From assembly GCA_958009085.1 (NCBI GenBank), contig OY253685.1, positions 744,001 to 808,000 on the forward strand: DNA of 64,000 bases, read 5' to 3'. The stretch is from Protoeuglena noctilucae (lineage: Eukaryota). Made by a program: the position numbers and the translations under genes. This document shows positions 8,234-49,718 of this stretch, piece after piece (the stretch's first letter is position 1; each line of letters begins with the position of its first letter). The notes beneath the pieces are model-generated. The model did no database searches and was not told the DNA's origin. It worked only from the letters and a program-made list of their open reading frames with translations.

Positions 8234-11200
8234 TCAGTGCATCGGGCTTCCGTGCGCAGAGGCGCTGCGCTCGAACCCAGGCCCGAGCGGCTGGTGCACG
8301 CTCGCGCTGTGCTGGCTCTGCACACTCAAGTCCTGCGCCGGTGCGTGAACCGGGTTCGAGACAGGTTGGGACGGGCGGGGGTAAGGGTAGTACGGCGCGG
8401 CGAGGCGGGTGGGCGGGATGCCGCCCGCACCGCCCATGCCCTGCATCCCCGGTGGGGGATACCCGCCCATGGCCTGGCCGTACGCGGCAGGTCGAGGGGC
8501 ATACCCACCCTGCGCGCCGTGGTGATATAAGGACGAGGCGCCCAGCGGGCTGGAACCGGGGATGCCCTGCCCCGCGTACCGCCCTTGGGCAAGCGTCGGT
8601 GCCCCCTGCATTTGGAAGCTCGGGCGAGAAGGGCGCCGTGGGCCGTGAATAACCACGGACCCTGGGGCACCCGCGAGGGCCATGGGCTGGTAGGCGCGTG
8701 CCCTGCAAGCATTGAGAGCGCATGGGGTGCGTGTTGAATGGCCACATCGCTGTTCGACCGTCCCACGCAAGGCACGCTGTGCTGGCCACAACTGAATAGG
8801 GTGCGTGAAAGTGCGTCACTCGCCCGATAGGACGAGGCGGCCCGCCCATTCCCGCCGGGACCATTCCAGCGGCGGTGGGGAAGGCGCTGACGGGGCCGGC
8901 ATAGGTGCCCAGCAACGACGGCGGCTGTGCTGCACCTGAGGAGGCAACAGAAGAGTTGCACTAACACTATCGACCTTACATGCTCACAAATGGTATTGCG
9001 CGCATGCACTACATTGATGAATCATCAATAAAAAAAATCACACATGTCGGTCATGTAATCCTGTACTCCTGGCCCCACCCTGTCCGCTCACCTGGGCCCT
9101 GCACGCCCTGCGCCGCGATGCCCAGCCCACCTCCCTGCCCCATCGGCAGGTTAGCCTGCGCGTGTGCATGCCCCGCGTGCGCCTGGCCCGTCGCTGCGTG
9201 CCGCCCCTCCTCTCGCACTCCCGGCACCGCTCTCTGCGCGGGCCCAGGGCTAATGCCCCGCATCCACGGCGAAGGGTCTTCAGGAGCCCCGCGGACCGAC
9301 CCCGGGCTGCCCAACCCCAGAAAGGCAGAGTCATTCCAAACATCACCCAGACCGTCAAAGAGGCTCCCCAGGCCAGAGAAGGCCGAAGTCTCCGGACCCT
9401 CCCCGTCCAGGAGCGCCGACAGGCGACGGGCCGTGGGCTGGATTGGGCCACCAGCGTTAGACACCAGCCGAGAGCCCACCGCCCCACGTGCAGAGTTCGG
9501 GTGACTGCCAGGGATCGCAGGTGACGAGGAGCCCAGGGCCAGGCGTAAGAGGTGCGGGGACTGTCGCTCCATCCGAGGCGCGTCCTGGTTGGCCCCTGCC
9601 CCCGCTGCAGACACAGACACCCCCGCTGGGCCCGCCGCCACAGTGACGCCCCCCGCGGCAGCCCCAACACCCCCCGCCGCACCGGCAGCCCCGCCTGCGC
9701 CCGCTGCGACCTCCGCTTGCGACGCGCGGACGGCCATGGCGGCGACGGCGGGGGTCGACGCGCGGCTGCCCTCTGAAGAGTGACTGGCGGCCTGGCGGCG
9801 TGCGGGGGGTGCGCGACGCACCGACCGCTGCTGCGCTCCTGTCGAGGGACCTACCATGGCCCCTCCCGACGGCCGAGGGCGGCGATGCCCTGCAGGGTCG
9901 CCAGCGGGCGTGGGTGGGCTCGAGGTGCGGTGCACCTGAGGCGACCGGGAGCCCGGCCCCGCGACATGCGACCCAGGCAGCTGCAGCTGCAGCGACGGGG
10001 GCTGGTGCCCCGCCGTCGGCTGCGATGCCAGGCCGGGAGCCGGGAAGGAGGCTCCCGCGCCCACGCCACCCATGGGCACACCCGGGGTGTAGGGCAAACC
10101 CCCGGCACCTCCCGCCATCGCCATGTAACCCATCGCATGCCCCAGTCCCAGCCCCGTGCTGGTCCCGGCCGCCCCTGCTGCGTATGCGTTGCGAGGGTCA
10201 ATGGCTGGCAGGGATCCCGGCATCCCTGGCCCCATCTGCCACCCGTACCCCGGCCAAGCGACGTTCGTCGGATAGGCAGACGCAGCTGCGAGGCCGCTCT
10301 GACCCTGGGATGCGTGGGGTTGCGATGCGTGGGGTTGCGATGCGTGAAGTTGCAAGGCGTGTGCTTGGCTCAAAGACGCGGCTGGGGCAGCGGGGCGGGG
10401 CATCGAGGCAGCGGGAGCTGCCACCGCGGCAGGCGGCGCACTCCAGGCCGCGATGTTGAGACTGGGCTTCCCCGCTGCCACCGTCTGGCCTGCTGCCACT
10501 TGTTGCGCCACACCCTGCACTGCCGCCCCCCCAAGCTGCCCTGCGATCTGCGGTGCGGCCACCTCTCGCTGCGAGCCCCCAGGGCCCGGCAGCCCCACCA
10601 CCGCCGCCCCCGGCTGCCCTCTCGGCGCCACGCCCGCGCCCCGCGTGCCAGGCAGGCGGTACGCGCTATGCATCGACACATTCTGAGAGCTCGCCCCCGT
10701 CTCCGAGGGAGTGGACGACATGCGGGGTCGCGTGGGCGCCCTTCCGTACGCCATCGATGCTAGCTCCTGCATGCCCGTCGGCATCAGCGACCCAAGCATC
10801 GTCCACACCCCCGCGCCCGCGCTCACCAACACACCCCCCGCCGACCTGCCCGCAGACCCGCCCTTGCCCCTCCCGCCCCCTTCCGCGTCCTTCGCCCCGT
10901 GCTTCTTCCTCTTGGTGCGTTTCTTGGCGATCTCGTCGAATATGGCGGCACCCTCGGGCGTCTCCCGCAGCCGCATGGGGTCCGCCGCCAGAGCGCGCAA
11001 GTAGAGCGACATCTGCTCGTTCCCGTGCCGCGCGGCGTAGTCCGCGTAGGAATGGAGCTCCGTGCTCACGCGGTTGGCGTCCTTGATCCCCTTGTAATGA
11101 CCCGACACCGTGTCGCCATCACGCTTGCGCTTTCCCGACGCGCCCCTCCCGCTGCCCTGCCCGCCCCCGATCGAAACCGATGCGCCGAAACCAGTCGCTG

Positions 11201-14200
11201 CGTGCGGCGCTGGCCCTGCCTGCGATCCGCACCCCACACCTGCCTGCGATCCGAAGCCCACGCCCGCTTGTGACCCAAACCCCACAGGCCCACCGCTCCC
11301 GCCCCCCACCGACCCTTCCCAGCCAGACCCGCCCCCAAACGCCCCACGCGCCCCGTCGTTCGCTCCCTCCCCGCTGCCACCTTGCAGCTGACCCACGCCA
11401 CCCCCCTGCACCGCTCGTGCGTAGCCCCTGTGAAAGCCCTGGGCCCCCGCTACCTGCCCCGCGCCTCCCTGCTGCGCGTGGCCCTGACTCATGTCAATGC
11501 CCCCGCTGTACGCGTCACCCCATGCGTCCCCACCGCACTCGTCGCCACCCTCATCCACCTCATCCCGACGCTCTGCTGCCGCTCCCTGCTCTGGCGGGGC
11601 CAACGATCCAGGCACAGCCATCGGCACAGGCGCTTCAGCACTCTGGTGCGCGGGTAGCGGCGTGTTTGTGCCCGGGGCCTGCCCAGTGGCAATGAGCGCA
11701 GCAGCGGGTGCGAGTGCGCCTGACGAGTTACCCTTATCAACCGCCTCTGTCCCTGCACGGTCCGCCCCGTCGCGCCCAAACACGCTGCCCGTCGCGAGCG
11801 CTGCGCGGGGCAGCGGGGGAAGGGCAGACAGGGGCGGCAGGGACGCAGGGGTCAGCTGGTGTTGCGTGTTGATTCGCGCAGTGGGGACGAGCGGTGGTGG
11901 CGCCAACGTGGCTCCAACCGGCGTCGCCTTCATGTGCGCGAGAAGACCGTCAGATGATATGGGAAGCTGCTTGGCCTCGACGTTTGCCTCGGCCACCCCG
12001 ATTGGTTGCTCTCGCTCCCTGTCACGATCGACCGCCGTCCGCCCATCTCCTTCCGTGCTGTTGGCTTGTCCCTTGAGCTCCGCAGCCATCGCACGGAACA
12101 CGGCGCGGAGCTTCCGCCGGCGCAGGAAGCGCCGCCAGGTGCGTTGGAGCGTTGCGGCGGCCTGGGTCACGAGGGCCCAAGGGGCTCCGAAGGGCGAAGG
12201 GTCGGTGGTGTTGGTGGAGAGGGGCGGAAGGCTCTGGGCCCGGTCGCGGACCTGCGAGGGAGGGACAACGGGGCTGATCAGTACCTACTCCAGTAGTGCA
12301 GTGGCTGGGCTAGGGACGGACAGGTAGGGAGACACACTGAACAATGCTAAGGGATTTGCGCTGTGACGATCAAGCATGGACGATCCATCTTAATGCTACT
12401 GAACGCAGCAATAGGAACTCGCCTGGGCAACGCGTGTCCACGGAGTGCGCTTGCGTCGGGGCGTGGCTGATGAAGGGCCACGTGATGTGGGGGTGATGTC
12501 TGCAGCATGGCTGTCTTGGGCCGGCGGCTGTTGTTGGGTCGGCGGCTGTTGAGGCCCGGTGTGTGCAGCGGCGGAATCCGGCAAATGGGGTACTGGTGTA
12601 GGCACGGGGTGCGGTGCTGACACGGGTGCTGAGGTGGGTGCAGAGACGGGCGTCGAGATGGGCGCCGACACGGGTGCGGAGACGGGTGCTGATGCGCTTG
12701 CCGGGGCCGGTGCCGAGATAGGTACCGACGCAGGCGCGGCGTCCGCAGTGGCAGGCGCAGAGGCTGGCGGCGTGCTTGGCACATGACCTGGCGTCGCATG
12801 TCCACCTGAAATGGGCAACACGGCGGGGTCTCCTGCAGCGCCACCCGCGGCCATCGAAGCTGCACTCACGGCAGGCACGCCCCCGCCTCCCTCCACCCCA
12901 GTGCCACCCACAGCCGTCGTTGCAAGCGTAGCGGCAGCTGCAACGCCCTCGCCTCCCTCCACCCCAGCAACGCCCGCCCCGTCCCCACCTCCCCGCCCCG
13001 CATACGCCACCTCATCGTCGCCGTCCATCGATGCCCCGTCCCCCTCCACCTGCGTCTCTGGCACCGACTCACTGGCAGCGTCCACCGCCAGTGGCGCCGT
13101 GTGCCCCTCCGCTCCGCTCGCCACGCCATCCACTCCGTCCACTCCCACGCCGGGTCTGTCGCTCAGCGCCGTCGCTGGCTCCCGTGCATGCGGCCCCCCT
13201 TCCCTCGCCCCATCTACCACCCCATGCATCTTGCCCGTGTCGCCCCCACCGTGCACCCCCGACCCCGCTTGGGGTTCGCGATCCAGCCCAACAACTCTCC
13301 TGAGCTCCGCGGTGAGTGAGTTGATCCCAATGGCAGCCCATAGGCGCCTCAGGAGGACGTCTAGGTCCGACTCACGCCCCTCGACACCGTCCACACTGAC
13401 ACCGTGCGCCTGACACAGGGATGCCAGAGACGGCACGGACACCAGCTTCACGGCCTCGATCAGCTGCGCTACGACGGCAGGGTCGGCGGCGGCGGCGGCC
13501 ACAGCGGGATGAGACGCGAGCCCTGGCTGCGTCTGGGCGGGTGCATTGGTGGCTATCGCATCTGTCGCGGCGACATCTGTCGTGGCGGCAGTGGCGGTTG
13601 AGGTTGGTTGGGTCGGGGTGGCAGCGGTGGGCTGCGCGTCCGTCGGAGCGGCCGAGGTGGCGGGAGCTGAGAGCTGCGGGGCTGGGCCCGGAGGTTGCGA
13701 GGCCGCGAGTTGCGGTGGCGGTCGTGCGGGGTCCTGGGCAGGGGAGGGGCCCGCGTTCGCTGGCGACTGCGATGGGGCCTGGGGAGGTGCCGTGGGTGGA
13801 AGGGAGAAGAGGGCTTGTGGTGCGGTTGCGTGTGGGCCCCTCTGTGGGGACTCGGGGGCTTGGGGCGCCAGCGCTGTGGTCAGGGCGGCCGTCAGCGGAG
13901 GGAGGGACGCTGGGGCCAGGGCGGGGGTTGGCAGGGGTAGCGATGCTTGGGTAGGGGTGGCTGTTGGCGGGGGTAGCGATGCCGAGGTCGGAATGGCTGT
14001 TGGCGGGGTAAGCGATGCTGAAATTGGGGCGGCAGTCAGGGGCGCAATTGATGCTGGGGCCAAAGCGGTCGGCAACGGTGCCGACAGCGGCATCGACACC
14101 ACGCCTGCCTGGCCCGGCAACCCCACTATCCCTGCCACCCGCGCTGCCCCTTGCAACCCCACCCCGACCGTCGGCATCCCCTGCATGACCATCTCCCAAA

Positions 14201-17100
14201 CAGCCATAGGCAACCCCTCCAGCCCCACAAGGGCTCCAACAGACGCAGCGCCCCGTCCCCGCCCCCGCCTGCCCCGCCCGCCCCTCCCTCTCCCCGTCGC
14301 CGCAGCCGCGGGCGCCGTACGCCCCGCCCCCTTCCCCCGCCCCCTGCCACGCCCCCTGCCCCTGCCCTTTGACTCCCCTCCCGCTGCTACCCCGACTAAC
14401 GGAGCTGACACCGCCACAGCCTCCGAACCTTTCGTATCCCCCAGCCCTGCACTCGCAGCGGCCCCTTGTGCAACCGTCTCGCCACCCACGCCACCTATGC
14501 TGCTACCAGCACCCGTGCCCACTGCAGCAAGGGACTTGTCAACCCCAGGAGCCAAAACTTCAGCAGTTGCCGGATCGGTGAGAAAAGAACCCCGTCGCCC
14601 GCGCCCTGGCCCAGCGGGACGCCCTCGGCCCCGTTTGGATGGCAAAGCAAGTGCCGGGTTTGAGTCCTGCCAGGGCGCCGAAGGGCGCGACGGGCCCGGA
14701 AGGGACGCGGCTGGCAAGTGAGGATCGACGGGGGCGGGAGGCTGGGCTGCTAGGGCGGGGAGAGGGAGCGAAGGCAATGACAGGGTCGGCGCAGAAAGGG
14801 CCGCAGAGTGCGAGGCGGCAGAGTGGGCGGCGGGGGCCGAAGTGGGGACCACCGGGGCGGAAAAGCTGCCTGGAAAGGCCTGGGCCAGCAATGGCGGCAG
14901 GGAAGGTGGCAGGGAAGAAGGGTGCAGGGACGACGGCAGCGATGCCGGCAGCACCAGCGGCACAGACGCGATCTGTGAGCGCGCGTCCGGTTGCGAAAAG
15001 GCCACGGCATTCTGCGCCACGGGCTGAGGGGCGACGCCGGTGCCATGGCCCGCAGGCGGGGCTTGCGGCCCTTGCAGAACGAACACCGTGCTCCCCTGGG
15101 CCGCCCCCAGCATCGCCGGGTTTGTTAGAAACAGCTGACCCGTGGTTGGGTCCCATCGCAGGCCAGCGCCCTGGAAATGAGAGTCTATAGGCAGGGACTG
15201 GGCGGCAGGGAAAGGGCCGACTGCGCTGCCGTGAGCCCTGGGGTGAAAGCCGGCCCCGCCACCGATGTCCTGACCCATAGCCTGCACCCCGCCCTGCGCC
15301 ATGACCGGCACCTGGCTCAAGCCATGACCCGGCATGTAACCCGGCATCTGGCTTTGCATATGACCGGGCACCTGACTCAGCCCAAGGCCTGGCGGCTGGC
15401 TGGGCGTCTGCGTCTGTGTTTGCGTGAATGTCTGCGCCACGCTCGCCTCCAGGGCGCCTAACGGCATGCCCCCGACCCCACGCACATCCCCCGCCGCCCC
15501 TGCAGCTACGCCCCCTCGCTCCTCATGCCCTGCCACTGCCGCGCGCCCCACTCTTCCCGTCCCTGCATCCACCCACACAAACTCTGCCCGCGTGCCCTCC
15601 CGTGACCCCTCGTGCCCCCCGCCGCTCTTCGCATCTCCACCCAGTCCCATCTCACGCGCCCCATCCCCACCATCCTCCCACCTCTCCCTCAGCAATGCCC
15701 TACCCCCACCGACAGACTGGGAACCCCCCCCGCTTGAAACGGACGCACCACCTGCCATCGCCCCACCTGCCACAGCCCCACCCATCGGCGCTGTGGGCGC
15801 TCGATGTGCAGCTGGCATGGCGGGGAGGTCAGGGAGGATTTGCTGAGGCCATGGCAGGGCACGCCCAGGCACACCGGCAGACGCATCTGAGCTGCCCCGC
15901 ACCACGCCCGCTGACTTCCCATTGCCCGGGGCGAGGCCGGCGTGGTCGTAGCTGCCGTGGTTGGCGAGGCTGGGGTCCGTTGCTGCGTAGTGGGCGTGAC
16001 GTGGGGCGTGGTCGTGACTACCTTGGTTGTTGGCAAGTCCAGGATCGCTGGCGGGGTGGTAGTTGGGGTGATCGTGCTGTGCATCGGGTGCGACGATCGC
16101 GTGTTCCGGTTCGAGTCTGTTCCTGGCGAGGATGAGCGTGATGCGGCCGAGGAGTGCAAAGATGTCGCGATCGTGCAGGCGCACGCCCACCGACGCCGCC
16201 ACGGCATGCACGCGGTCTGCCCTGTCCACGTGGCCGCTCTTGATGCCGTCCGCGATCCAACTGCGGGGTGTAAATGAGGTCAAGCGAGGGGTAAATGATC
16301 AGCGAGGGTACAGTGATCGTGGGGTGATCATGGGGTCACTCGCACTCAACTCGCACAACACCCAGCCACCCAGAAGTGACCCACCACGCAACGATGCCCA
16401 CCCAACACCATTTCCGCAACACTCACGTGAGCGTCCCCCTCTGGTCTTGCGACAGCGGCTGCCACCCGTCCCCGCTCCTCTCCTCTCGATCCACCACGCG
16501 CCCCTCCACCCCTCCCGCACGCCCCTCCGTGCCCCCGCCCCTTCCCTCCAAAGCCCCCTCCGACCCCGACATGCTCCCACCCCCAGACGTCCCGGGTTCG
16601 AATCCAGGCGCGTTCCCTACTCGTCTGTGACCCCCTCCCCGCCCCCTCAGCCCCCAACTCTGGTCGCTGCTCCCCCCGCCACGCAACCGCAACACCGCCC
16701 CGCCCGCATCGCAACATCCCCCCCTCAACACCCCAGCTTCTGCCCCGCCAGAACCAACTGCGCCATGCAAGCTCCACCCCGCAACCTCCGCTTCTCCCCA
16801 CACACCTCCATCCCTGTCGTGCGGGTCAATGCTATCGCCCTTCCCACCCCCCCGCATCGCTGCCCAAGCATCCCGCCGCCGCACACGCTTCCTCGCCACA
16901 CCATCCACGACGCCCTTTCTTTCGCTCTCCCCGAGAATCAAACCCCCGCCACGCACATCCCCAAGCACCGGCGATGGAGTGGCTGCCCCATGCTGCATGA
17001 CAGCTGCGGTAGCCACCCCAGCAGCCACCGCACGCTGCTCGTCCGCTGCAGTGGCCGCCCCGCCTCTCCCGCTGCCGCGGCGGCTCACGCTCGGCCGGCC
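8234..17100 (-). CDS. Very large Gly/Ala/Pro-rich low-complexity protein region with AT-hook-like, SAP-like and IQ-like motifs; probably the C-terminal part of the upstream PHD gene
   Basis: ORFs 16423-17088, 12396-16283, 9051-12170, ~8824-8936 and 8234-8702 join with matching phases (donors near 16426, 12422 GC, 9091, 8823 GC). Motifs: KRGRGRP, SVPSLASLCQAHGVSVDG...LLRRL, AAATLQRTWRRFLRRRK. Confidence 0.6.
11205..11285 (-). repeat. Coding tandem repeat, 24-bp unit (VG[F/C]GSQAG x3)
   Basis: Seen in ORF 9051-12170 as GFGSQAGVGFGSQAGVGCGSQAG. Confidence 0.7.
12610..12725 (-). repeat. Coding 12-bp degenerate repeat (APVS/APIS units)
   Basis: ASAPVSAPVSAPISTPVSAPTSAPVSAP in ORF 12396-16283. 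Confidence 0.65.
13880..14060 (-). repeat. Coding ~36-bp degenerate repeat (ASLPPPTA..)
   Basis: ASLTPPTAIPTSASLPPPTATPTQASLPLPTPALAPASLPPLTA. Confidence 0.6.
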
Positions 17101-21579: not shown

Positions 21580-21906
21580 CTTCCTGCGCATCGATTTTAG
21601 CGGGTGAGATGAGCAATGGGCTCGGTGGGTGTCTGCAGCTCGGCTGGTAGGGCGTGGTGTGGGCGCGACCCGCGTGCATTCATTGTCATTATGACATCGT
21701 TTTACGAATAGCCACTCAAGGCATCCTTCTGAGGATCGCCGGCTGCCACTGCGCGGGGTGACATGTGCGCGCCTCTTCCGGCGCCCTGAAAATTCGCGGC
21801 TTCCTGTTCTTGCCCCAAACTTATTCAAAGCTGTTGCTTGTATCTCCCCAGGTGGCCCGAAGAGGGTAGGAGGCGCTCCCGGCGCGGGGCGCCAGGCGTG
21901 GCGGGG

Positions 21907-24900
21907 ATGGTTGGACCCGGACTGCTCTCCACGGCGGACCATGGCCTGCGCACAACCAAGAAGGTCCTCATCGAGAATGCTATCGAGTACACGGACACGC
22001 TTGGGTACGTCATGGGCCGCTGCGCGCTCGCCGGGCGCGGCTGGCCAGATGCGTCACCGCGGCTCAACCTCTCGCGCGCCCCCGCCGCAGTTGGAAGAAG
22101 TGGCAGCCCGGCGCCGAGCACGTCAAGCACATCCTGGTGCGCAACATCTGCCCCGATGTCATCAAAATCAAGTATGGCCTTCCTTCGACCAAATACTTCC
22201 GCATGGACTTCCCCGAACCCATCAAGCTCTCCCCCGGTGCGTCGTTTGCGCCGGCTATTTCGTGTTGCACAGCAAACGCACCTAGATGATTTATCCTTGC
22301 TTGCAAATCCACGTCCCGGTCCCCATCGCGACCGCACAAGCGCCGCGCATGTCGACCCCGACCCCTTTCCCCGCGCAGGCATGTCCGCGAGCATCCCTGT
22401 GACCTTCTGCCCCACTCGCGCGATGCCGTACCAGGACCGCGTCACGTTCCAGTGGGCGCGCGGGGAATTCACCGTGTCGCTGCGTGGCCTGATGCCCGAG
22501 GTGGACCTGGAGGTCCCGCCGCTGGTGGACTTCGGCTATTCGCCGTGCCTCGAGCGCCGCTCGCACCGCGTCTCCATCCGCAACGTCGGCCGCGCGCCCG
22601 TCGACTTCGCCTGGACCGTCCCCGCGCCCTTCGCGGTCGAGCCGGCCCAGGGGTCGGTCCCGGTAAACTCTGAAGCAGTGCTCACGTGCTCCTTCCTGCC
22701 CACCTCCGCCTCCGTCTTCACCGCCTCCGCCGTCTGCAACATCACGGGCGGGCCCTCGATCACCATGCGCATGCAGGGCATCGGCAAATACGCCTTCTTG
22801 CGCCTCGATGCCGACCGCGTCAACTTCGGAGAGGTAAGGCACGGGGGGTATGATTGAGTCATCGACAGTGCTGGCCCTGCCGCATTCCCTCGCCTCCACA
22901 ACGCCCCTCAATGCCACCGCTCACAAGCGCGACAGTCTCCTCGACGCCCCCCGCCCTCCGCCCTCCCTCGCAGGTCCTCCCCAACTCCGTCGAAGAGCGC
23001 ATCGTGACCCTGCACAACCTGTCCGCCGTCGAGGCCAAATTCGAAGTCACCGGAGATGGCGATCCCGAACAGAGCCCCTTCGCCATCGTGCCCGCCTCCG
23101 CCACCATCCCGCCCTCCTCGTCCGCGCCCCTGCGGGTGAGACAACCCCGCGCTTTAGAGAGCGACAGCTGTGCTGATCCCGGTTCATTTGTGCGCATTGC
23201 ATCTGTGCTTCCCACCTCCTCAGCACCCACCTCGCTCCCAACCACGACCCCTGACCTGCCTGCCACCTACCCACCCTCATTTGCAGGTCAGATACAGCCC
23301 CACGACTGCGGACTCTGCCATCTCTGAGGTCTTTAGCGTCGTGGCCGTGGGGGGCAACACCCTCACGCTCACCGCCAAGGGGGCGTGCGTGGGGCCGGAG
23401 GTGTCGCTCTCCACGCAAATCCTCAACTTCGGATCCGTGCAAGGTGCGTGCGGTGCCAGTGCAACTGCGAACTTCGCAGCACAACGCTTGCCTTGCAGTC
23501 AAGCGCCGGCCGCACCTGTATCCGCACCCGCACCCGCACGCGCACCCACAGCCCACCCGCGCCCCCCACCCCCGTCGCTCCCGCAGCCGGCAAGCGCGCC
23601 AAGCGCGCCTTCATGATCTACAACCGTGCCCGCGTCGACGTGGCCTTCCAGTTCACCTGCGAGGGTGCCGGGGCGTTCGAACTCGACGCCGTCCGCGGCG
23701 TCCTCCCCGCCCTGGGTTCGACCCTCGTCAACGCGACTTTCACCCCGGAGGTCCCCGCGCAGTACCGCCGCCGTGTCTTCCTCCTCGTCATGAGCGCGTC
23801 GGAGGTCACGGCGCTCGACCTCATCGGAACGTGCTTCACGGCTGACCAGCACCCCGACCCGCTGCAGGAGTGGCACCTGCACCAGCACCCGCCGGCCATC
23901 GCGCCCACGCTGCCATCACAAGCGCTGCTGACGGGCGGGGACGCCGTGGAGGCCGCCACCCCGCGCGTCAGCCGGTGGGTGGGCGACGGGGGCGGCACGT
24001 TCGCGGCACCCACACTGGGGCCCGAGGGGTCGCCGCAGAGCACCCTGGCCGCCCGGCGCGCGACGCTGGGGTCCCCGGGCCAGGAGTCCGCGATGCTGCG
24101 CGAGGCGGTGGAGATGGCGGACATGGCGAGCCTTGCCGACTCGCGCCTGGGGTCGTGGGGTCAGATGCTCGCGCAGGCGCAGAGGGAGGGGCTCAGGGCA
24201 GGCGCCGGTGCCGCACAGGCCCCCGCGGCTGTGGACCGGTCGCCGTGGCGGGAGCTCTTCTCGATGACGCAACGCACCCCGGACGGTGGGCTGTCGGTGG
24301 ACGCGGGCGCGCTGGATTTTGGGGCTTGCTCTCGCCTTCGCCTGGCGCCCAACAAGACGGTCACGGTGACCAACCACACCAAGGAGCGCCTGGTGGTGCA
24401 CTGGGCCACCACGGCTGCTGAAGCCGACGTCGACCCTAAGGGTGAGAGCTACGCTGTGGTGCCATGTTGTGCTTGCCTACAACGCGCATCCCTCCCTCGC
24501 ACGACTGACTCTCGTGTTCAAATGTAATACCTGCCGTTGTACATTGTACACTACCACATATAAAGCTGACTCCCTCCTCCGCACGACTGTTGCATTCAAC
24601 CAAACCCACCCCTCGCACCGCCCCTCCGCAGGCCGCGTGTTCCCGGTCTTCCCCAACCAGGCCGAGGTGGGTCCTTCCCAGTCGGCCCAGTTCCGCGTGT
24701 CCTTCCGGCCCAAGAGGGACAACGCCTACTACGCGGCGCAGCTCGAGTGCTTCGCGGTGCGCAAGGCCGCCACGCACAGCTCCCTCGAGACCGGGCGTGC
24801 CAGGAACGCCGAGCAGCTGGCGGCGCAGCCCGTGCCGCTGCCGTGGGCGCTGGTCGTCGACGCCGTCGGGCACACGTTCCAGGGGGCGCAGGAGTCGCTG

Positions 24901-27900
24901 CCCATGGTGGCCATGTCAGCACAGCAGGTGAGAGGCACGAGGGGTGGGGGAGTCTGCACATGTCAGCAGGAGTTGCATGAGCTGGTCTCCTGCATGGCTT
25001 TTGTAAATGTGATAACGAATAACACCGCTTACGCTGTCATGCAGCCTGACTGTTCTGCTTCAAGCCCCGCCTCACCTCATTACACCTCTCGCCTCGTCAC
25101 GCCTCTGTTCCTCTGCCCCTCCCAGGTGGAGTTCCCGGCTGGCTACGTGGGGTCCTCCAGCAGCCAAGTCGTGTCCCTCTTCAACCAGGGGGCCACCCCG
25201 GTGACCTTTGAAGCCTCCGTGACGGCCGGCGCCGACGACGCGGGCATCGACGCTCCCTTCGCCGTGTACCCCTCCTGTGGGGTGGTGCCGCCCGCGTCCC
25301 GGCAGCTCTTGGCGCTGCGGTTCTCCGCTAAGGAAGCGAGGGTCTTTGCCGGGAAGCTCAAGGTGAGCAGCAAAGCGTGGTGGTCGCCTGGTCTCAGCAG
25401 CGACGGCGATCGCTCGCCCGCAGCTGCTGTGGCGTGCATCAGTTGCTGTCACCACAGGTGCTGCGACCATAGAAGTCACCGTGCCATGTATATAATACCG
25501 ACATGCCCACATGCGCACTCGCTGACCCCATCGCACACGCTTACTCGCTGACCCCTCTGCAGGTGCTGGTCAATGGCCACGGTGCGCAGTCGGTGGCGCT
25601 GCGGGGCGTCGGGTGCCGCCCGGCGCTGCGCCTGGGCGACTCCGGGACTCTGTTCTTAAAGCCCACGTGCGCGGGGGCGTCCTCGACGTGCCTCCTGCCG
25701 TGCCGCAACCCCACGCCCGTGCCCGTGGCCTTCCAATGGGAGATCCCCGAAGCCGCCAAGTCGCTGCTGCGGGTGTCCCCGGAGGCTGGGGTCATCCCTG
25801 GGGGCGAGTCGCTCTCTGTCGAGTGGACCTTCGCCCCACGAAAAGCCAAGGCGTACTCTCTGGCCGTCCCGGTGCACATGGGACCCCCCAACGGCTCCCA
25901 CTTCGCCGCCAGCCGCGGCGTGAGCGACGTCGCGGTGCTGCGGGTCGTGGGGGAGGGCACGGCGGGCGGGGTGGCCGTGACGAGCGGACCACTTCAGGCC
26001 GGGGTGGTGCGCATCGGGGACGTGGGGAAGGTCGCCGCCACGGTCGTCAACCAGTCCCAGGGGGTCCTGCAGTTCCTGCTAGTGCCCTACCGCGTGCGAC
26101 ACGACGGGACGGAGGAGATCGAGACGTCCGGGCAACTCACGCTGCCCCAGCCTCGGGGCACCCTGGCGGCCCTCACCGAACACAAGGCAAGTGCCGTGCA
26201 GGGAGGACGATGCTAAGGGACGGTCGGGCATCTGTTATTCGATTTCCTCGAACAAAGAGTGGCAGCAAATACCGTGACACAGTACCATATCGAGAGTGCT
26301 CGATGCGCAGGTCTACCCTTGCACCATGCGCCTGGAAGTGCCCTCGCTTCACGCTTCGCCGCTTTTTCCTGACTTCCCACGATGTTTGTCCGCAGATCCC
26401 CGTGGACTTCGCCCCGCGTCGTCGCGCGCTGTTCCATTTCCGCGTCAAGGTCTTTGCGATGGGCGGGGGGAGCGCCTCCGCAGCCCCGCTTGTGCCCGAG
26501 GCGATTGATCCAGCGGACCCCACGGGCCTGGGCCTGCCCTGCGCGGCGCAGTTCGACGTCATGGGCTCTGGGCAGCACCCGATGCTCCAGATCGTGGACG
26601 TCGCCAGCAGCCTCCAGAAGAGCGTCGTGTGGGACATGTCACAGGCTGCCGAGATCAACCAGGTGAATGCGCGACTGCGGGACGGTGCGCACTTTCCATT
26701 CACTGCTCAATCTCTCTCGTTTTCCCACCACCCTGCCCCTCACTCACCCACCCCTCGCCGCCCCCACCCATCCCCTGTCACCCTGTGTTTCTCTCACCCG
26801 CCCACCCCCATCCCACCTGCCCCACCCATTCCAACCCCAGGCGTTTGGCGCGGCCATGACCATCGACGAGCTCCACCGCGTCGAGGCCCTGGCCATGGGC
26901 AAGACATCCGTCACCGACGTCATGCGGCAGCTCACGCCCATCCCGGTCGACCTCCCCTGCGGCGCGCCGGGCGCCGAGGACGCCGTGCTGCACCTCTTGC
27001 TGCGGAACGTGTCGGACTTGGACGCCGACTGGAGCATCTCCCTGCCCAACGAGACCGACCTCGACATGGAGTCATGGGTATTGCCTCGCTTCCCTCCCGA
27101 CGCCGTGGCGCAGATGGAGCACCTGTTCGAGGTGCACCCGCGGTCCGGCAAGGTCGCGCCGGGTGCCGAGCAGCAAGTCACGCTGCGCTTCCGGCACGAA
27201 GCCCCCGCCGTGCACCGCCTCCCGCTCCTCATGTACATCGCGCACGGCAAGTGCCTGTCCCTGGAGATCGTCGGCCGCACCCTGGAGCCGGACGCCGCGC
27301 TGATGGCTTCCGGCGACGTGCACCACGAGCTCGTGGCCGTCGAGGTCGGCCGCCCCGAGCCGCCCCTCCAGACCGTCACGCTCTACAACCGCGGGCCCGC
27401 ACCCGTGCAGTTCGAGCTCGACACGGCCGCTTTACAGGACCTCCGCGCCGCCTGCTGGGACTTCGAGGTGCTCAAGCTCCTGTCGCCATCCCAAGGGACC
27501 ATCCCTGCCAGGGGCCACCTGGTCACGTGGTGGAGCTTTTCGCCCCTCGAGGCCAAGGAGTACGCGGTCACTGTCCCGGTGCGCGTGGACGGGGAGCCGT
27601 CGCACAACCTGGTGGTGACGGCACGCGGCGTGGCACCCACGCACGTGCCGGGGAGATGGGACGCGATGGCGGAGGCGGAGGGGCTGATTGCGGGGCACCG
27701 ACCGCCGCCGGGGTCCCTGGGACTGCTGTCCGGCGAAGTGGACCCGTTCAGTGGGAGGGGCGCAGAGGCCGATGCGCCCATGCCCAGTGGCGATGCGGCG
27801 GGGGACACAGGGCGGTCGCGGGCGGCGGGGCCGAGCGCGGGGGCGGAGGCGAGCGCGGCGGGCTCGCCGGGGGCGGCACGGGAGCGGGAGCGGGAGCGGG

Positions 27901-30046
27901 AGTCGGGCCCTGCGGAGATGCCGCGCGCGCTTTTGCGGACGGCCACAGCGCGGCCGGGCACCAAGGACGGTCTGAGGGGCCCCGAGACGCTGGGCCTGGA
28001 CGAGCGGACGGGCGAGAACATGGGCAGCGTGGACCTGCCGCTGTTCGCACGCCTGCGTGACCGGGCATCGCACGTGGCCCTGAGCCAGGATGTGCTGGAC
28101 ATGGGCAGCGTGGCGTGCGCCGAGACGCGGTGCAGCGTGCTGGTGAGGGCGGGGGGCAGATGGTGGCGGAATGCGCGGGGGGGCTTTGACTGCGATGGCG
28201 AGCTTTGCGGGGGGCTGAGGAGGGCTGGGACGTGCAAATGCGGTCATTTGGATGGGGCACCGTTCATCGGGGTACTGATCGCACCCAACCGTCGCTCACC
28301 TCCCTTGGCGCCCGCAGCTCGTGCACAACCGCCACGCGCACCCCATTCGATTCAAGTGGGCCCTCGGGGACTACGAAAAGGCCAAGGGGCGGGACGCTGG
28401 GCACTTTGGTGAGTCCTGGACAGGCAGCGGTAGGGGTGCACGGTCAGACATGCTTGGTGCCAGGGTGCTAATCGGCGGCACTAGAAACGATGCCGCGCAT
28501 TGGCTCACTCTGCCCTGCTCTGACTCTCTCACACAGCCGCACCCCAACTCTCTCGCTCTGCCTTGCCCTAAGTGACTCTCACTCCCCCATACACCCTCTG
28601 CAGACGGGTCTCTGTCGATTGAACCCATGGAGGGCGCCCTGAAGCCCGGCGAGCGTTGCCTGGTAAAATTCGAGGTCCGAGGCGGTGGCCGCGCCGTGCT
28701 CTTCGACGGATGCGTGGTGCTGACGACTGAGGAGCAACAGGACTCGGTATCACCGCGTGACGTGGCGCGGTGGACCATGGAGCGCACCCAGGGCGGCAGG
28801 GCGGTGGCCGAGGAGGCGGCCAAGGCGCTGCGGATGAGGCCGGGAGTCACGGGTGAGCGCACGCGGCGAGTTAGGGTGCAAGCGGGGCTTGCGATGGACC
28901 GGATCGTGTTCTCAGCAGGTACTACTGAGAACTACCCATCGCCTTGGCCGCAGGGTTCGTGGCCAATGAGCTGTCTCTGGACGCCATCACTTCGGTCGAC
29001 AGCGCCAACAACGAGTTGGACCTGAATGCCATCCAAAAGCACCGGGAGCGGCAGCAGCAGCAGGCGCCACCGCCGCCCCAGGTGCGCGTCCCTTCTTCAA
29101 CGTCACAACATCGAAGGCAACGTGCTTCTATTAGTAAATGTAATTGTTGAAAACTTCGTTCTTGCAGGTCCGGCCTCTGAGAGTGATTGGGGAGGTGCAC
29201 ACGGGGGAGCCATTGCTGCCGCACCTGGCGGTCTTGCGGAGGCTGGCCGTGCGAGAGATGGAGGAGGCCAGGAGGTGAGAGAAAGGAAGAGAGAGAGGGG
29301 CTTATTGAGTGCTCATCTACATACGTCGTACGCAAGTCATGTTGGGGCTGCCACAGTCCCTGCCAAAGTGCCAGCCCTACCTACCCAATTGCCTCTAAGG
29401 TTTCATCTCTCTTTATGCTAACCCGCGTCCACTCATGCGCGTGCCTTTAACCACCCCCGCAGGTCCCTGTGGGGCGGCCGCGACCCCGAGCAGGCCACCG
29501 GTGCGGACGACGACGGAATGATGGCGTCGATCGTGGGGAGCGTGCTCGAATCCGCACTCGAGGCCCTCGCCTGCGACCCGACCGTCTTCGTCGCCGCGCT
29601 CGTCCCGCAGCCGGACATCCCCGCGCGGCAAGCCGGCCGCCGCAACGCAATGCCTGCGTCGGTGGAGGCGGGGGTGGGCGACGAGGAGGCACGGCGGGCA
29701 CTGGCGGAGGCGGAGGGTCGAGTGGTGGACTTGGAGGCGGAGATGTTCGCCGAGTACCTGCTCGAGAGCGCCATCTTCAGGTGCGGGTTGTGCAGGGATT
29801 GGAAGGGGTTAAGCATTGCACGGGGCAGTCGTGGGGTGGCACTCTGCACCACACTGCTGTGCCATATGCGCCTTAATGATATGTTCATGACCCATCCGTA
29901 CACGACATCGATATGTATGTCCCTTTCCTGGCCCCCGCAGTGTGCTGCAAGAGTCCGTGGCCCCCGCAGCGCAGAGGGCCGCTGCGCACGCCACATCCAC
30001 GTTTGAGCCATTCCGGCCATCTCTGGTGAAGCCGGGCGGTTTTTGA
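21907..30046 (+). CDS. CFAP65: Cilia- and flagella-associated protein 65-like (tandem ASH/PapD-like Ig domains)
   Basis: WQPGAEHVKHILVRNI...IKYGLPSTKYFRMDFPEPIKLSPG|MSASIPVTFCP, VDFGYSP...IRNVG...FAVEPAQGSV, repeated LNFG/LDFG...N...V.P..G.I units, and C-terminal EMFAEYLLESAIFSVLQE. About 20 exons; TGA 30044-30046. Confidence 0.78.
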
Positions 30047-46012: not shown

Positions 46013-48875
46013 ATGATATCGTTTGCCACGCGGAGGGGCTGTTTGCAGCCCGACACCCAGCGATCGAACGGGCCGCGGGTCTCGGAAGTCACAGAAACAT
46101 GGCCGCAGCTCGCCGGGGCGGACCGCTTCTCGGAGTGGCTGACAATAACATTGCAATTTACCTATGAGATCTGTCCATCAAGAGGGAAGCCGGAACCGTT
46201 GACCGCTCTGCTTCTATATCTGCAGCAATCCCTGCCCTGGACGCCATCCCAGGCACTACGTCCTGCCCGATGGCATGCCACGGCATCCTCGAGATATCGA
46301 GCGCGTTTGGCCGTGGCGCGGGCCGTGTCCTTCCCCTCTCGGCGCGCCGAACCCCTCGCCCCTGCGGACGCGGTGTCCCACCCTCTGCGCGACACGGAGG
46401 GCGCCTTCCCCGTCGCCAAGCATCCAGCCAAGCGCGTCTCTTCCCTGGCTTTCACGCGCGGGCTCCGGATCCTCTTCTTCGTCGAAGCACATAACGGGAT
46501 GTCCCAGGCAAGGCGCGCACATTTGCCCTCGCGGCCAGTGTCTTTCAATCACCCTTCTTGATTTGACTCTTCTGCTTCTCCCTCCCGCAGCGCCTGAAGC
46601 TCGAGGCCGAGCGCATGGGCCACCGCGTGCACGTGGAGCTGGCCCTGTCCGCCGATTCGATGCTGCACGCCTACGACGTCTACGCACCGGACCTGGTCGT
46701 GTGTCCCATCCTCAAGCGCCCGGTCCCCGAGGCCATCTGGGAGGCCACGGCCACGCCCGTGTGGATCGTGCACCCTGGGGTGGCGGGCGACCGTGGGCCC
46801 CACAGCATCGACTGGTGCGTGACGCGCAAGGACGCACGGTGGGGCGTCACGGTCCTCGAGGCCAGCGCAGAGATGGACGCGGGGCACGTCTGGGCCACCG
46901 AGGACTTTGACGTGCCCCCCGATGCGACCAAGTCGTACATCTACCGGTGCCTCGCCGTCCCGGCCGCCGCCCGGTGCCTCGCGAGGGCACTGCGGGCGCT
47001 CGAGTCCGGCGCAAGACCCACCCCGCAGCACCCCGGCATGCCCGGCACCCTCCGCCCTTCGATGGACTCACGCCGCGACCGCTCCGTCGATTGGGCCGCG
47101 CCCGCCATCGACGTCTGCCGGGTGGTGCGCGCCTCGGACAGCGCTCCGGGGGCCCGGTGCGTCCTCGGCGCCCCCCACGCACCCGACGCAGAGTACTTCG
47201 CCTACGGGGCCATCGTGGAGTCGGCGCCTCCCGCCGGCCTCTTGGCAGCCGTGCGCCCCGGGGACCTCCTGGCCCAGCGTGACGGCGCCGTGCTGGTGGC
47301 GGCGGGGGACGGCACGGCTTTGTGGCTCTCGCATTTGCGGCGGCCCAAGGCCCCCGGGGACACCGCGCGCCACATCAAGCTCAAGGCGACGGCTGTGCTG
47401 CCGCCCGCGGTCGCTGCTTCGCTGCCCACCCTCCCGGCACCCCCCCTGCGCGTGGAGCCGTTCGGGGCCCGCCCCGCGACGTGGCAGGAGGCGTGGTACG
47501 GCGTCAGCCCGGGCGGCGCGGCGGTGGTGCGGTGGGAGGTGCAGGGCGGGGCGTTCGGCCCCTCGCAGTGCGCCGGCATCCGCGAGGCCATCACCGCGGC
47601 GGTGGCGGACCCGGACACCCAGGTGCTGGTGCTGGCGGGGTCCCCGCAGGCCTTCAGCAACGGCATCGACCTGAACGGCGTGATGGCGAGCGCAGACCCC
47701 CCCTCGGCGGCGTGGGATGCCATCACGTCCATCAACGACCTCGTACGCGACATCTTCTCGGTCTCGCGCGTGCCGGTCGTGTCGGCCCTGGCGGGCGGCG
47801 CGGGGGCGGGCGGGGTCATGACGGCGCTCGCGGCCGACGCCGTGTGGGCGCATGGCGACGTGGTGCTGAATCCCCACTACCGCACCATGGGGCTGACGGG
47901 GTCCGAGTACTGGACCTACTTCCTGCCCCGCAAGTGCGGCGTGGCCATGGCCAGCGCCCTCACAGACGCGGCGCAGGTGAGGGGTAGTTGCAGGGGCTGG
48001 TTGGAGCTGGATGGCGTGGGCATGAGAGGGAGCGCAGCGGGGCTCGCTGGGTCCCTGATGCGTGCCGTCGCGTCTCTCAGACTTTGAGCGTCTGCATGGG
48101 CGGCGTGATGCGCTGGAAACCCTTACCCTTTGCGTCGTCCTCGCAGCCGATTCTGGCACCTGATGCGGCTGCCGTCCGTTTGGTGGACGCCGTGCTGACG
48201 CCGTCCCTGCCGGGCTTCATGGAAGAGGTCGTGCGGCGGGCCGAGGCGATGGCCGCGGGGCCCGAGGGCGCAGTTGTGGTTGCCAACAAGCGCGCGGTCC
48301 GCACCCCCGCATGGCACGCGAGCGTGGAGGAGCTGCGGGAGCAGGAGCTGGTGGCCATGCGGAGGTGAGAGTGGATGGGTGCTGATATGACTCCTGGTGC
48401 GACCGTCTTGGTGTGGCCTGGCGACGGCCTGGGTCGTCTCTTGCTTCTCTGACAGCCGTCGCTCGTGCTGACTGCTGCTGTTGGGAGCATGTCACAGCTG
48501 CATGCCTACCAATCCTGTCGCGTACCGTCACCCATCATGGTTACCCTCTCTGGTGCCGTCCTTCTCAGGTGCTTCTCTTCTGCTGTGTTCCTGGAGGCCG
48601 CCGACCGCTTCGTCCACAAGCACGCCGCCGACGCCACGCCCGACCACATCAACAGCGACCTGGCTGCGAGGCTGAGGGACCTCATCGCAAGGGCCAAGGA
48701 GCGCGCATCTGTCGCAGCGTCGCACGTGCGGCCCGTGTCCGTGACCCTGTCCTCTTCGGTTGAGTCTGACTGGGAGACGGTGCCAGAGTCCGACGCCATC
48801 GCCGGGGCCTTCGCGGCCGGGGCGGCGGTGCCGGGGGCCATGGCGGGGCCCTTCGAGGCGCCGCAGGACGCCTGA
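46013..48875 (+). CDS. hypX: HypX/HoxX-family protein (formyltransferase-like N-domain plus enoyl-CoA hydratase-like C-domain)
   Basis: LRILFFVEAHNGMSQ|RLKLEAERMGHRVHVE...PDLVVCPILKRPVPEAIW...IVHPGVAGDRGPHSIDW...WGVTVLEASAEMDAGHVWA...KSYIYR...RASDSAPGA...FSNGIDLN...INDLVRDI...AGAGGVMTALAAD...VLNPHYRTMGLTGSEYWTYFLPRKCG. Introns at 46508-46590 (GC-AG), ~47977-48146 and ~48365-48569. The start codon is uncertain (46013 or later). Confidence 0.9.
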
Positions 48876-49718
48876 GAGAGGGAAGCGACACAGAGGTGAG
48901 CTGAGGCGCCGGTGGCAAGCATGCGACGCTGGGGCTGAATTGGGCTGCAGCGCTGTGCCACTGCTGCTATGCGATGCATGGCACAGACGGCACTAAGCGG
49001 GGGGTATGGTCAACCCCACACACATGCTGCACGTGCTGTGCTTTGCTGTGCTCTGTGCTTCCCGCGTGCCATCTTGGCCATCGCTGTCCCCCATCGCAGG
49101 CCAGTCGTGTCCGGTCTCGTTCTGGTCAGGTCCATGTGCCCAGTGCAAGCACACCGAGCGACAGGTTCGACGACGGAGGGCAGCACGGTGCGCCCGTTGT
49201 TTGGCAAGGTCAGGATCAGCGTCAGACAGCGGATATGGTCATGTCCGGTCTTTTGCGCGTGCTTGAGGAGAGAGAGGACAGAAGGGGCGGGGCTGCGGCG
49301 TGCGAGCCACTCGCATGTCAGCGCCCAACCGCTCACCCAAACCCATACGGCGCCCCAGTGCCGCCGCCACGCATTCCGTCGGACCGCAGTGCAGCCCATT
49401 GGCGGTGCTATTCATGCCGATTTCACACACCAGCGCGGGGCTAGGCTAGGCTAAGTTAGGCGATGTGTAGGGTTTGAAAGTGTATGGGTGTATGTGGTAT
49501 ATCTGACCACACGGTAGAGAAAGAGGCGCGCAAGCACGCGTGCGCTGCCCCGCTCACGGCACGTCCGCTCTAAAGTGCACGAGATAAGCCAGGCTACCAG
49601 CGGTTGACAGAGAAGGGGGCCACTCACCGCCAAGCCACTGGACTTCTCATCGACGGCCAGACTGCCAGGCCCGGCCAGCCCCGCCTCGCAATCGTGTCGG
49701 CCAGCCTCGCAACCATTC

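Follow-up and report, generated by a model that had tools for sequence, protein, structure and literature searches.

The 64,000-nucleotide window analyzed here, from the eukaryote Protoeuglena noctilucae (contig OY253685.1, positions 744,001 to 808,000 of the forward strand), encodes a full-length, two-domain homolog of the bacterial protein HypX/HoxX at 46226-48875 on the plus strand. By its sequence, the gene is a member of a eukaryote-wide, database-annotated, and apparently unstudied HypX-like family, which is found in animals, fungi, and protists without known [NiFe]-hydrogenase. In the literature searched, HypX is a bacterial accessory of aerobic [NiFe]-hydrogenase maturation. The locus provides clean evidence, in the form of introns, spliced RNA, and eukaryotic neighbors, for a genuine, expressed nuclear HypX homolog with all five proposed catalytic residues kept. 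We somewhat favor the view that the protein is an organellar 10-formyl-tetrahydrofolate (10-formyl-THF):coenzyme A (CoA) formyltransferase/formyl-CoA decarbonylase that would act independently of [NiFe]-hydrogenase.

The protein, its active sites, and its gene

Exon 2 of the gene matches the Pfam families Formyl_trans_N (PF00551, 4.2e-7), Formyl_trans_C (PF02911, 6.3e-8), and ECH_1 (PF00378, 6.8e-13), and the N and C formyltransferase sub-domains are followed by the crotonase domain in one chain. The best PDB match is Aquifex aeolicus HypX (6J0P/6J1F, named 'Hydrogenase regulation HoxX'), with an E-value of 3.8e-70 over query residues 7-450 (444 residues). Matches of the C-terminal domain to enoyl-CoA hydratases in the PDB are at 1e-7 or weaker. 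NCBIfam apparently holds no HypX-specific model; a bacterial control (P0003) matched only the generic crotonase and formyltransferase models, far below cut-off.

According to the accessible text of PMC6802093, His74, Asp80, and Asp109 are the putative catalytic triad for formyl transfer in Aquifex HypX, and Tyr416 and Glu426, near the CoA thiol, are the residues proposed for formyl-CoA decarbonylation; mutating their Ralstonia equivalents gives a HypX-minus phenotype. Numbering of the 6J0P chain, counted on the alignment, is native plus 20. All five residues are identical in the window protein and invariant in a 13-row alignment (A1), in line with the intact enzyme described in an earlier sequence-only reading of this DNA. 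Their codons lie in exon 2 at 46771-46773 (His), 46789-46791 (Asp), 46876-46878 (Asp), 47878-47880 (Tyr), and 47905-47907 (Glu). The motifs noticed in that reading are present, as IVHPGVAGDRGP, EMDAGH, and NPHYRTMGLTGSEYWTY, in the exon 2 core, a 506-codon stop-to-stop frame at 46567-48087 (plus strand). NPHY and GSEYW align with Aquifex HypX, with Y430 and E439 invariant in A1 and in two further alignments, A2 and A3. All 28 bacterial rows and 31 of 32 eukaryote-clade rows have the complete set of His, Asp, Asp, Tyr, and Glu; the remaining row is a fragment truncated at its C-terminus. Judged from these alignments, both active sites are under constraint in the eukaryote clade.

Bacterial HypX/HoxX proteins (Aquifex 6J0P; Cupriavidus necator HoxX) share the architecture, the triad, and the Tyr/Glu pair with the window protein. 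Among the CoA-tethering positions compared, Arg131 and Ser194 are common to both, whereas Gln195 is replaced by Ala and Asn306 by Gly. The latter two positions also vary among bacterial rows, and three of the 11 bacterial rows in A1 have Gly at the Asn306 position. The window protein differs from its bacterial counterparts in being only 36-45% identical to them, nuclear, and spliced, with an N-terminal extension of at least 78 residues and without hyp or hydrogenase neighbors among the open reading frames (ORFs) scanned. A further difference is the clade-specific Cys of the CP[IF]L motif, which does not vary within A2 and A3; its position is taken by Ala or Ser in the bacterial rows of A1.

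The N-terminal hydrolase of ALDH1L1 (formyltetrahydrofolate dehydrogenase, FDH) has a homologous formyltransferase fold and the His/Asp pair (PDB 4QPC and 1S3I, E-value 1e-12, query residues 24-191). Like the predicted window enzyme, it drains one-carbon units from the folate pool. In FDH, a phosphopantetheine arm and an aldehyde dehydrogenase domain take over the formyl group, and the products are CO2 and NADPH; the window protein instead has a crotonase domain, with CO as the predicted product. Of the ACP-like linker and the C-terminal aldehyde dehydrogenase domain that mark an ALDH1L protein, the latter (Aldedh) has no Pfam match in the window protein.

The coding region is assembled through splices at 46507/46591, 47976/48147, and 48364/48569, which give a single open frame of 801 or 742 codons, depending on the model of the 5' end, closed by a TGA at 48873-48875. 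All features of the gene are on the plus strand. The exon at 46226-46507 supplies 78 residues of the basic N-terminal extension, none of them Met, and then the opening strand of the formyltransferase domain (LRILFFVEAHNGMSQ). The bulk of the formyltransferase domain comes from exon 2 (46591-47976, 462 codons, third-position GC content [GC3] of 0.93), as do the linker and the crotonase core. Exon 3 (48147-48364) lies in the helical C-terminal region of the crotonase domain, of which it encodes a part, and aligns with the C-terminal parts of bacterial HypX and of P0002, the relative closest in identity. Exon 4 (48569-48875) carries a conserved FVHK motif, common to the relatives as FVHK or FVYK, and an acidic, Ala-rich tail that runs to the stop codon.

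Intron 1 (46508-46590, 83 nt) has a CAG/GCAAGG donor and a CCCGCAG acceptor; its assignment to the GC-AG class follows from resolving a three-base ambiguity at the joint, which appears in RNA as 46504 to 46588. Intron 2 (47977-48146, 170 nt) and intron 3 (48365-48568, 204 nt) are of the GT-AG class, with donors CAG/GTGAGG and GAG/GTGAGA, and all acceptors are pyrimidine-rich and end in CAG. The three spliceosomal introns of the sequence-only reading are thus borne out, each coding intron being seen as an RNA joint, and one had escaped it: a 204-nt GT-AG intron in the 3' untranslated region (UTR) at 48896-49099, with a joint from 48893 to 49098 in RNA runs X1 and X3. Intron 3 and the 3' UTR intron, both 204 nt long, gave no sign of being introner-type repeats, as blastn of five introns against the window returned self-hits only.

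Eight of the 12 public sequencing runs listed contain the 3.1-kb stretch of the locus. Four RNA runs, all from a single marine metatranscriptome study, contain 0.30-0.66 of the sampled words, and the four others are runs of one coded organism that contain all of them. Contigs from three RNA runs (X1, X2, and X3) and one full-match DNA run (X5) were compared with the locus, and every contig piece is at least 99% alike to the window. The 83-nt skip is found in X1, and the 170-nt and 204-nt skips in both X1 and X3; exon 3 is contained in X1 record 3 and X3 record 15. The DNA run X5 is colinear with the window in one contig and has none of the joints. Open frame and RNA joints together confirm the earlier description of an intact, spliced, and transcribed gene. 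One unspliced X2 contig (47977-48411) runs from intron 2 through exon 3 into intron 3 and represents either pre-mRNA with retained introns or DNA in the RNA library.

Translation starts upstream of 46226, because the exon at 46226-46507 is transcribed (X1 record 2 covers 46225-46504 and continues into exon 2), stays open in frame, and lacks an ATG ahead of LRILFF. In the runs compared, no RNA contig covers 45802-46203. Three models of the 5' end (46013-46225) all open into this exon: an intronless start at ATG 46013, where the sequence-only reading had placed it, a start at ATG 46099 with an intron at 46135-46225 (91 nt), and a start at ATG 46013 with an intron at 46088-46225 (138 nt). The GC content of 46135-46225 is 0.47, compared with 0.68-0.75 in the exons, which favors an intron there; GC3 of 46013-46134 is 0.80 in frame A. 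In model B the extension comprises 91 residues, 78 of them transcribed, and contains 15 Arg/Lys but only 4 Asp/Glu, with the first acidic residue at position 54. The basic, Ala/Arg/Ser-rich extension reported ahead of the bacterial-type start is therefore found on an RNA-covered exon, and its basic, acid-poor composition is of the organelle type that had been suggested, which makes the protein a candidate for organelle import.

Relatives in other eukaryotes

A word-based search retrieves the gene's own product, then P0002 (50% identical), and then bacterial HypX proteins at 38-45% identity; in the tree output the closest identity is 53%, again to P0002. The latter is encoded on an intron-less 3-kb contig, has a 41-residue extension, and is continuous across all three splice junctions. 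Scanning of metagenome contigs added two mRNA-like single-gene contigs, L002, with a 27-residue extension, and L001, in which HypX is fused to FolD. The L002 protein (72-2225, P0207) contains an inter-domain insert of about 90 residues with two near-identical acidic repeats, and occupies the longest branch of the trees. Eighty named bacterial loci were used for comparison.

Five sequences (the window protein, P0002, L002, L001, and P0131) were then used in an exhaustive profile search of 1.84 billion representatives, which returned 25,058 proteins with E-values up to 1e-3, of which 650 reach 1e-30 or better. The top matches are rich in N-terminal offsets of 20-90 residues. Exact-sequence look-up of 30 clusters shows that 12 carry eukaryotic names. 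The named animals are Trichoplax, Nematostella, the tardigrade Hypsibius, the rotifer Didymodactylos, the bivalve Potamilus, the annelid Owenia, and the flatworm Macrostomum. The other named members belong to Plasmodiophora, the dinoflagellate Togula, two species of the basidiomycete Ceraceosorus, and Chlamydomonas sp. UWO241. Several of the genes, including those of Trichoplax, Nematostella, Owenia, and Potamilus, reside on scaffolds of 8-62 Mb. Independently, the Atlas lists 206 proteins, mostly of ascomycetes, in one cluster with the ECH_1 and Formyl_trans_C domains.

Many of these proteins are present in databases under automatic labels such as 'hydrogenase maturation factor HoxX', its variant 'HoxX-like' (so in Nematostella), or 'Formyl transferase C-terminal domain-containing protein' (for example, Nematostella XP_032233888.1, Trichoplax XP_002112030.1, Hypsibius OQV17577.1, Plasmodiophora SPQ95248.1, and Chlamydomonas sp. 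UWO241 KAG1662066.1). They fall into the same clade and share the five catalytic residues and the CPFL-type signature, and many have presequence-like N-termini. The window protein differs from them in its long Ala/Arg-rich extension, its acidic C-terminal tail, and the lack of a FolD fusion. The caution voiced earlier, that other eukaryotes also have HoxX-like annotations, was correct. We found no paper on eukaryotic HypX/HoxX in the full-text literature searched.

Extensions of at least 19 residues before the first strand occur in 17 of the 32 eukaryote-clade rows and are basic with few acidic residues. In the bacterial-type comparison, 168 of 193 proteins begin directly at the M-x-I-L strand. 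Inspected by eye, many N-termini of the clade resemble mitochondrial presequences, and one Plasmodiophora record carries the source label '(mitochondrion)'.

FolD produces 10-formyl-THF, the predicted substrate, and eleven proteins carry a HypX-FolD fusion. THF_DHG_CYH and THF_DHG_CYH_C domains were detected in all nine candidates scanned, C-terminally in seven and N-terminally in two; L001 and P0131 are likewise HypX-FolD fusions, and the source records of the Macrostomum and Didymodactylos members bear the name 'methenyltetrahydrofolate cyclohydrolase'. The fusion proteins (Togula MMETSP0224, Macrostomum, Didymodactylos, the marine contigs L001 and P0131, and a bacterial, Chloroflexi-type group) have a homologous HypX module, but the window gene is without the methylene-THF dehydrogenase/cyclohydrolase module, and THF_DHG_CYH has no match among the window ORFs scanned. 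P0131 and Togula are among the rows nearest to the window's group. The bacterial fusions (P0136, P0139-P0146, P0221, and L019; 841-908 residues) form a tight group that clusters with a Chloroflexi locus. Because this group is separate from the eukaryotic fusions, the FolD fusion arose more than once. In the PDB, the FolD part of L001 matches bacterial FolD (1e-47) and human MTHFD1 (9e-46) about equally well, which offers no hint of its origin.

Nine fungal-type proteins (P0266, P0277, P0279, P0281, P0284, P0290, P0292, P0294, and P0295) are 700-1184 residues long and have GDAGP in place of GDRGP. They are interrupted by large inserts, end in long tails rich in Ser and Pro, and share a conserved Cys-Tyr-Tyr motif at the C-terminus, with no N-terminal extension.

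Proposed function and its alternatives

The favored reaction is carried over from the solved Aquifex enzyme. At the His/Asp/Asp triad, 10-formyl-THF would give up its formyl group to bound CoA, which would then swing into the crotonase domain, where the Tyr/Glu pair would decarbonylate the formyl-CoA, with a net conversion of 10-formyl-THF to THF and CO. The likely setting is organellar, probably mitochondrial, folate one-carbon metabolism, where the enzyme, instead of maturing a hydrogenase, could let one-carbon units leave the pool, regenerate THF, or provide CO. Targeting, reaction, CO release, and physiological role are all inferred. A role other than [NiFe]-hydrogenase maturation had already been proposed in the sequence-only reading, and we too rate it the likelier one. 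The name 'hydrogenase maturation factor' on the eukaryotic proteins is probably a functional misnomer.

Several observations weigh against this assignment. Two CoA-contact positions differ from Aquifex HypX, as described above, and the predicted targeting is drawn from composition, with three start models in play. CO inhibits cytochrome oxidase, and a mitochondrial CO source would need a low flux. The literature searched yielded no CO assay on any eukaryotic member, and the scan for hyp and [NiFe] families covers the ORFs of the 64-kb window. Bacteria whose HypX presumably serves hydrogenases have the FolD fusion as well; the fusion therefore supports the substrate and not a non-hydrogenase role. 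Finally, the flatworm-type FolD-fusion pair, the pair with N-terminal FolD, and the fungal type are nearer to bacterial rows in our trees, which are unrooted, and the eukaryotic rows need not be monophyletic.

The strongest competitor, which we consider rather unlikely, retains formyl-CoA chemistry without CO release and treats the crotonase domain as a carrier or hydrolase. Formyl-CoA could be made from 10-formyl-THF, or the enzyme could run in reverse and salvage formyl-CoA from oxalyl-CoA decarboxylase or 2-hydroxyacyl-CoA lyase into the folate pool. The intact formyltransferase triad agrees with such a function, and the FolD fusion is compatible with both directions of the formyl-THF reaction. 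Eukaryotic formyl-CoA arises in oxalate catabolism and alpha-oxidation, according to the portions of PMC9090294 and PMC4729952 available. However, a loss of decarbonylation would not readily account for the retention of Tyr416 and Glu426 in all but one of the 32 eukaryote-clade rows.

It is very unlikely that the protein is a bona fide maturase, supplying the CO ligand under oxic conditions to an unseen [NiFe]-hydrogenase with its Hyp machinery. The family-defining residues are all intact, as they would be in a maturase, and the search for partners is limited to ORFs of the window. Here, the Pfam scan took in 275 of the 288 window ORFs of at least 130 residues, the other 13 overlapping the HypX gene, and found no Hyp or hydrogenase family among them, although short exons would escape it. 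The closest relatives, moreover, are from animals, Rhizaria, fungi, and a dinoflagellate, and to our knowledge no [NiFe]-hydrogenase has been described for any of these groups. In the available text of PMC12134894 and PMC2974642, [NiFe]-hydrogenases are stated to be bacterial and archaeal. The HypX tree in the latter is bacterial as far as that text goes, and the accessible part of PMC8003979 treats algal hydrogenases as [FeFe] only.

Bacterial gene neighborhoods were surveyed at 40 of the 80 loci, using the three longest flanking ORFs of each. HypD, HypF, or NiFe subunits are encoded within 2.5 kb at 15 loci, three have only a HypE-like AIRS protein, and the remaining 22 have none of these. 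In a methanotroph metagenome-assembled genome (L077:3977-5359), formate-tetrahydrofolate ligase, which makes 10-formyl-THF, is encoded immediately downstream of hypX. At three loci hypX is adjoined by the gene of a protein with MHYT, a proposed gas-sensing membrane domain: L014:4191-6302 (Peribacillus), where it is fused to PAS-GGDEF-EAL, L051:4237-5121 (Kitasatospora), and L043:4148-5020 (Nocardia). A connection to CO sensing is conceivable at these loci.

The family points to an unstudied eukaryotic one-carbon branch, which may be a CO-producing or formyl-CoA-handling exit of the 10-formyl-THF pool, and the origin of non-heme biological CO becomes a directly testable question. As a tentative possibility, the eukaryotic HypX-like proteins in general could be a heme-independent, folate-dependent CO synthase of mitochondria or plastids that turns 10-formyl-THF into CO. 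If so, the biological CO given off by marine phytoplankton would have a genetic basis, and the proteins might explain the classical tracer finding of a serine/folate origin of CO in siphonophore floats, as cnidarians carry the gene. In the accessible text of PMC8692525, which cites Gros 2009 and Tran 2013, phytoplankton CO production is a small ocean source, with no mechanism given. Wittenberg 1960 is cited for serine as the source of CO in siphonophore floats in PMC13579702, which itself, in the portion available, assigns the CO of Physalia to heme oxygenase.

Origin and genomic setting

The careful tree (46 rows, 570 columns, LG+C20 with posterior mean site frequencies [PMSF], 200 bootstrap trees, unrooted) groups the window protein with P0232 and P0002 at 100/100. 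This trio is part of a 12-row set (96/88) and of a 17-row set (97/94). No named bacterium falls into the larger set, whose named eukaryotes number nine with the window protein included. The eight others are a bivalve, an annelid, Trichoplax, Nematostella, a tardigrade, Plasmodiophora, a dinoflagellate, and Chlamydomonas sp. UWO241. The 12 rows with eukaryotic names and the 18 with bacterial names are separated by a single change (69/81, and in 84% of bootstrap trees). A quick tree of 76 rows agrees, with a 33-row set at a Shimodaira-Hasegawa-like approximate likelihood-ratio test (SH-aLRT) value of 95. In trees of 84 and 65 rows, the window protein, P0002, L002, L001, and P0131 are split from all bacterial rows with an SH-aLRT of 99. 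Six rows of the 84-row tree (L015, L034, L028, L069, L086, and L089) are placed on a 4.5-substitution branch; they were taken as wrong-frame ORFs and dropped afterwards. Single and several origins within eukaryotes are both compatible with the unrooted tree.

A recent transfer from bacteria into this organism is not supported, because both the 46-row and the 76-row trees nest the window protein among eukaryotes. The earlier suggestion of a lineage-specific bacterial acquisition by this alga, followed by intron gain and domestication, has in its favor the 36-45% identity to bacterial HypX and the patchy eukaryotic distribution, and in our view it is highly improbable. The nearest rows are P0232 and P0002 and the next are eukaryotic, none of the 18 named bacterial rows falls inside the 12-row and 17-row sets, and the CP[IF]L Cys sets the clade apart from the Ala or Ser of bacterial rows. 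The sequence-only reading had also considered that the gene might nest in a widespread eukaryotic clade of known function; the clade is indeed widespread, but we found no published function for it.

The surroundings of the gene are GC-rich throughout the window (0.63-0.71 per 2 kb). Ig domains of CFAP65 are encoded by six ORFs at 21790-28409 (plus strand) and a kinesin motor by three ORFs at 37.5-39.3 kb (minus strand). A Nudix domain is encoded directly upstream of the HypX gene in divergent orientation, and pelota/eRF1 domains directly downstream by two ORFs on the convergent minus strand. Two ORFs match Saf4/Yju2, and the other Pfam matches in the window are to a PHD finger, an ABC ATPase, ribosomal S15, and DUF1295. 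Each of the CFAP65, kinesin, pelota/eRF1, and Saf4/Yju2 genes extends over more than one frame, in keeping with the eukaryotic setting originally claimed in place of a bacterial contaminant. Judged by this gene content, the locus is a nuclear region of a flagellated eukaryote. That it could be bacterial contamination or a decaying pseudogene, for which only the bacterial-looking annotation speaks, is practically negligible: the spliceosomal introns are removed in RNA, which we take as refuting it, the genes on either side are eukaryotic and divided by introns, splicing yields an open frame of 742-801 codons, and the GC3 of exon 2 fits a host-adapted gene.

Some minor features of the window deserve mention. 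The multi-exon CFAP65 gene indicates that the organism builds a flagellum. The closest named matches of the pelota exon are to Haematococcus (43%) and Closterium (10 matches, in a search limited to longer proteins), and its taxa in the Atlas are mixed, with diatoms and streptophytes. An algal lineage is plausible, and for a green alga these matches are weak evidence. X1 record 3 (2835 nt) extends about 1.86 kb beyond 49400 into the convergent, minus-strand pelota gene, and reflects either overlapping 3' ends or transcripts merged by the assembler. On the minus strand, open frames of 1077 codons (9054-12284) and 1300 codons (12399-16298) lie in a stretch of 70% GC and match no Pfam family at 1e-5; either a large gene of low complexity or chance frames driven by GC content may account for them.

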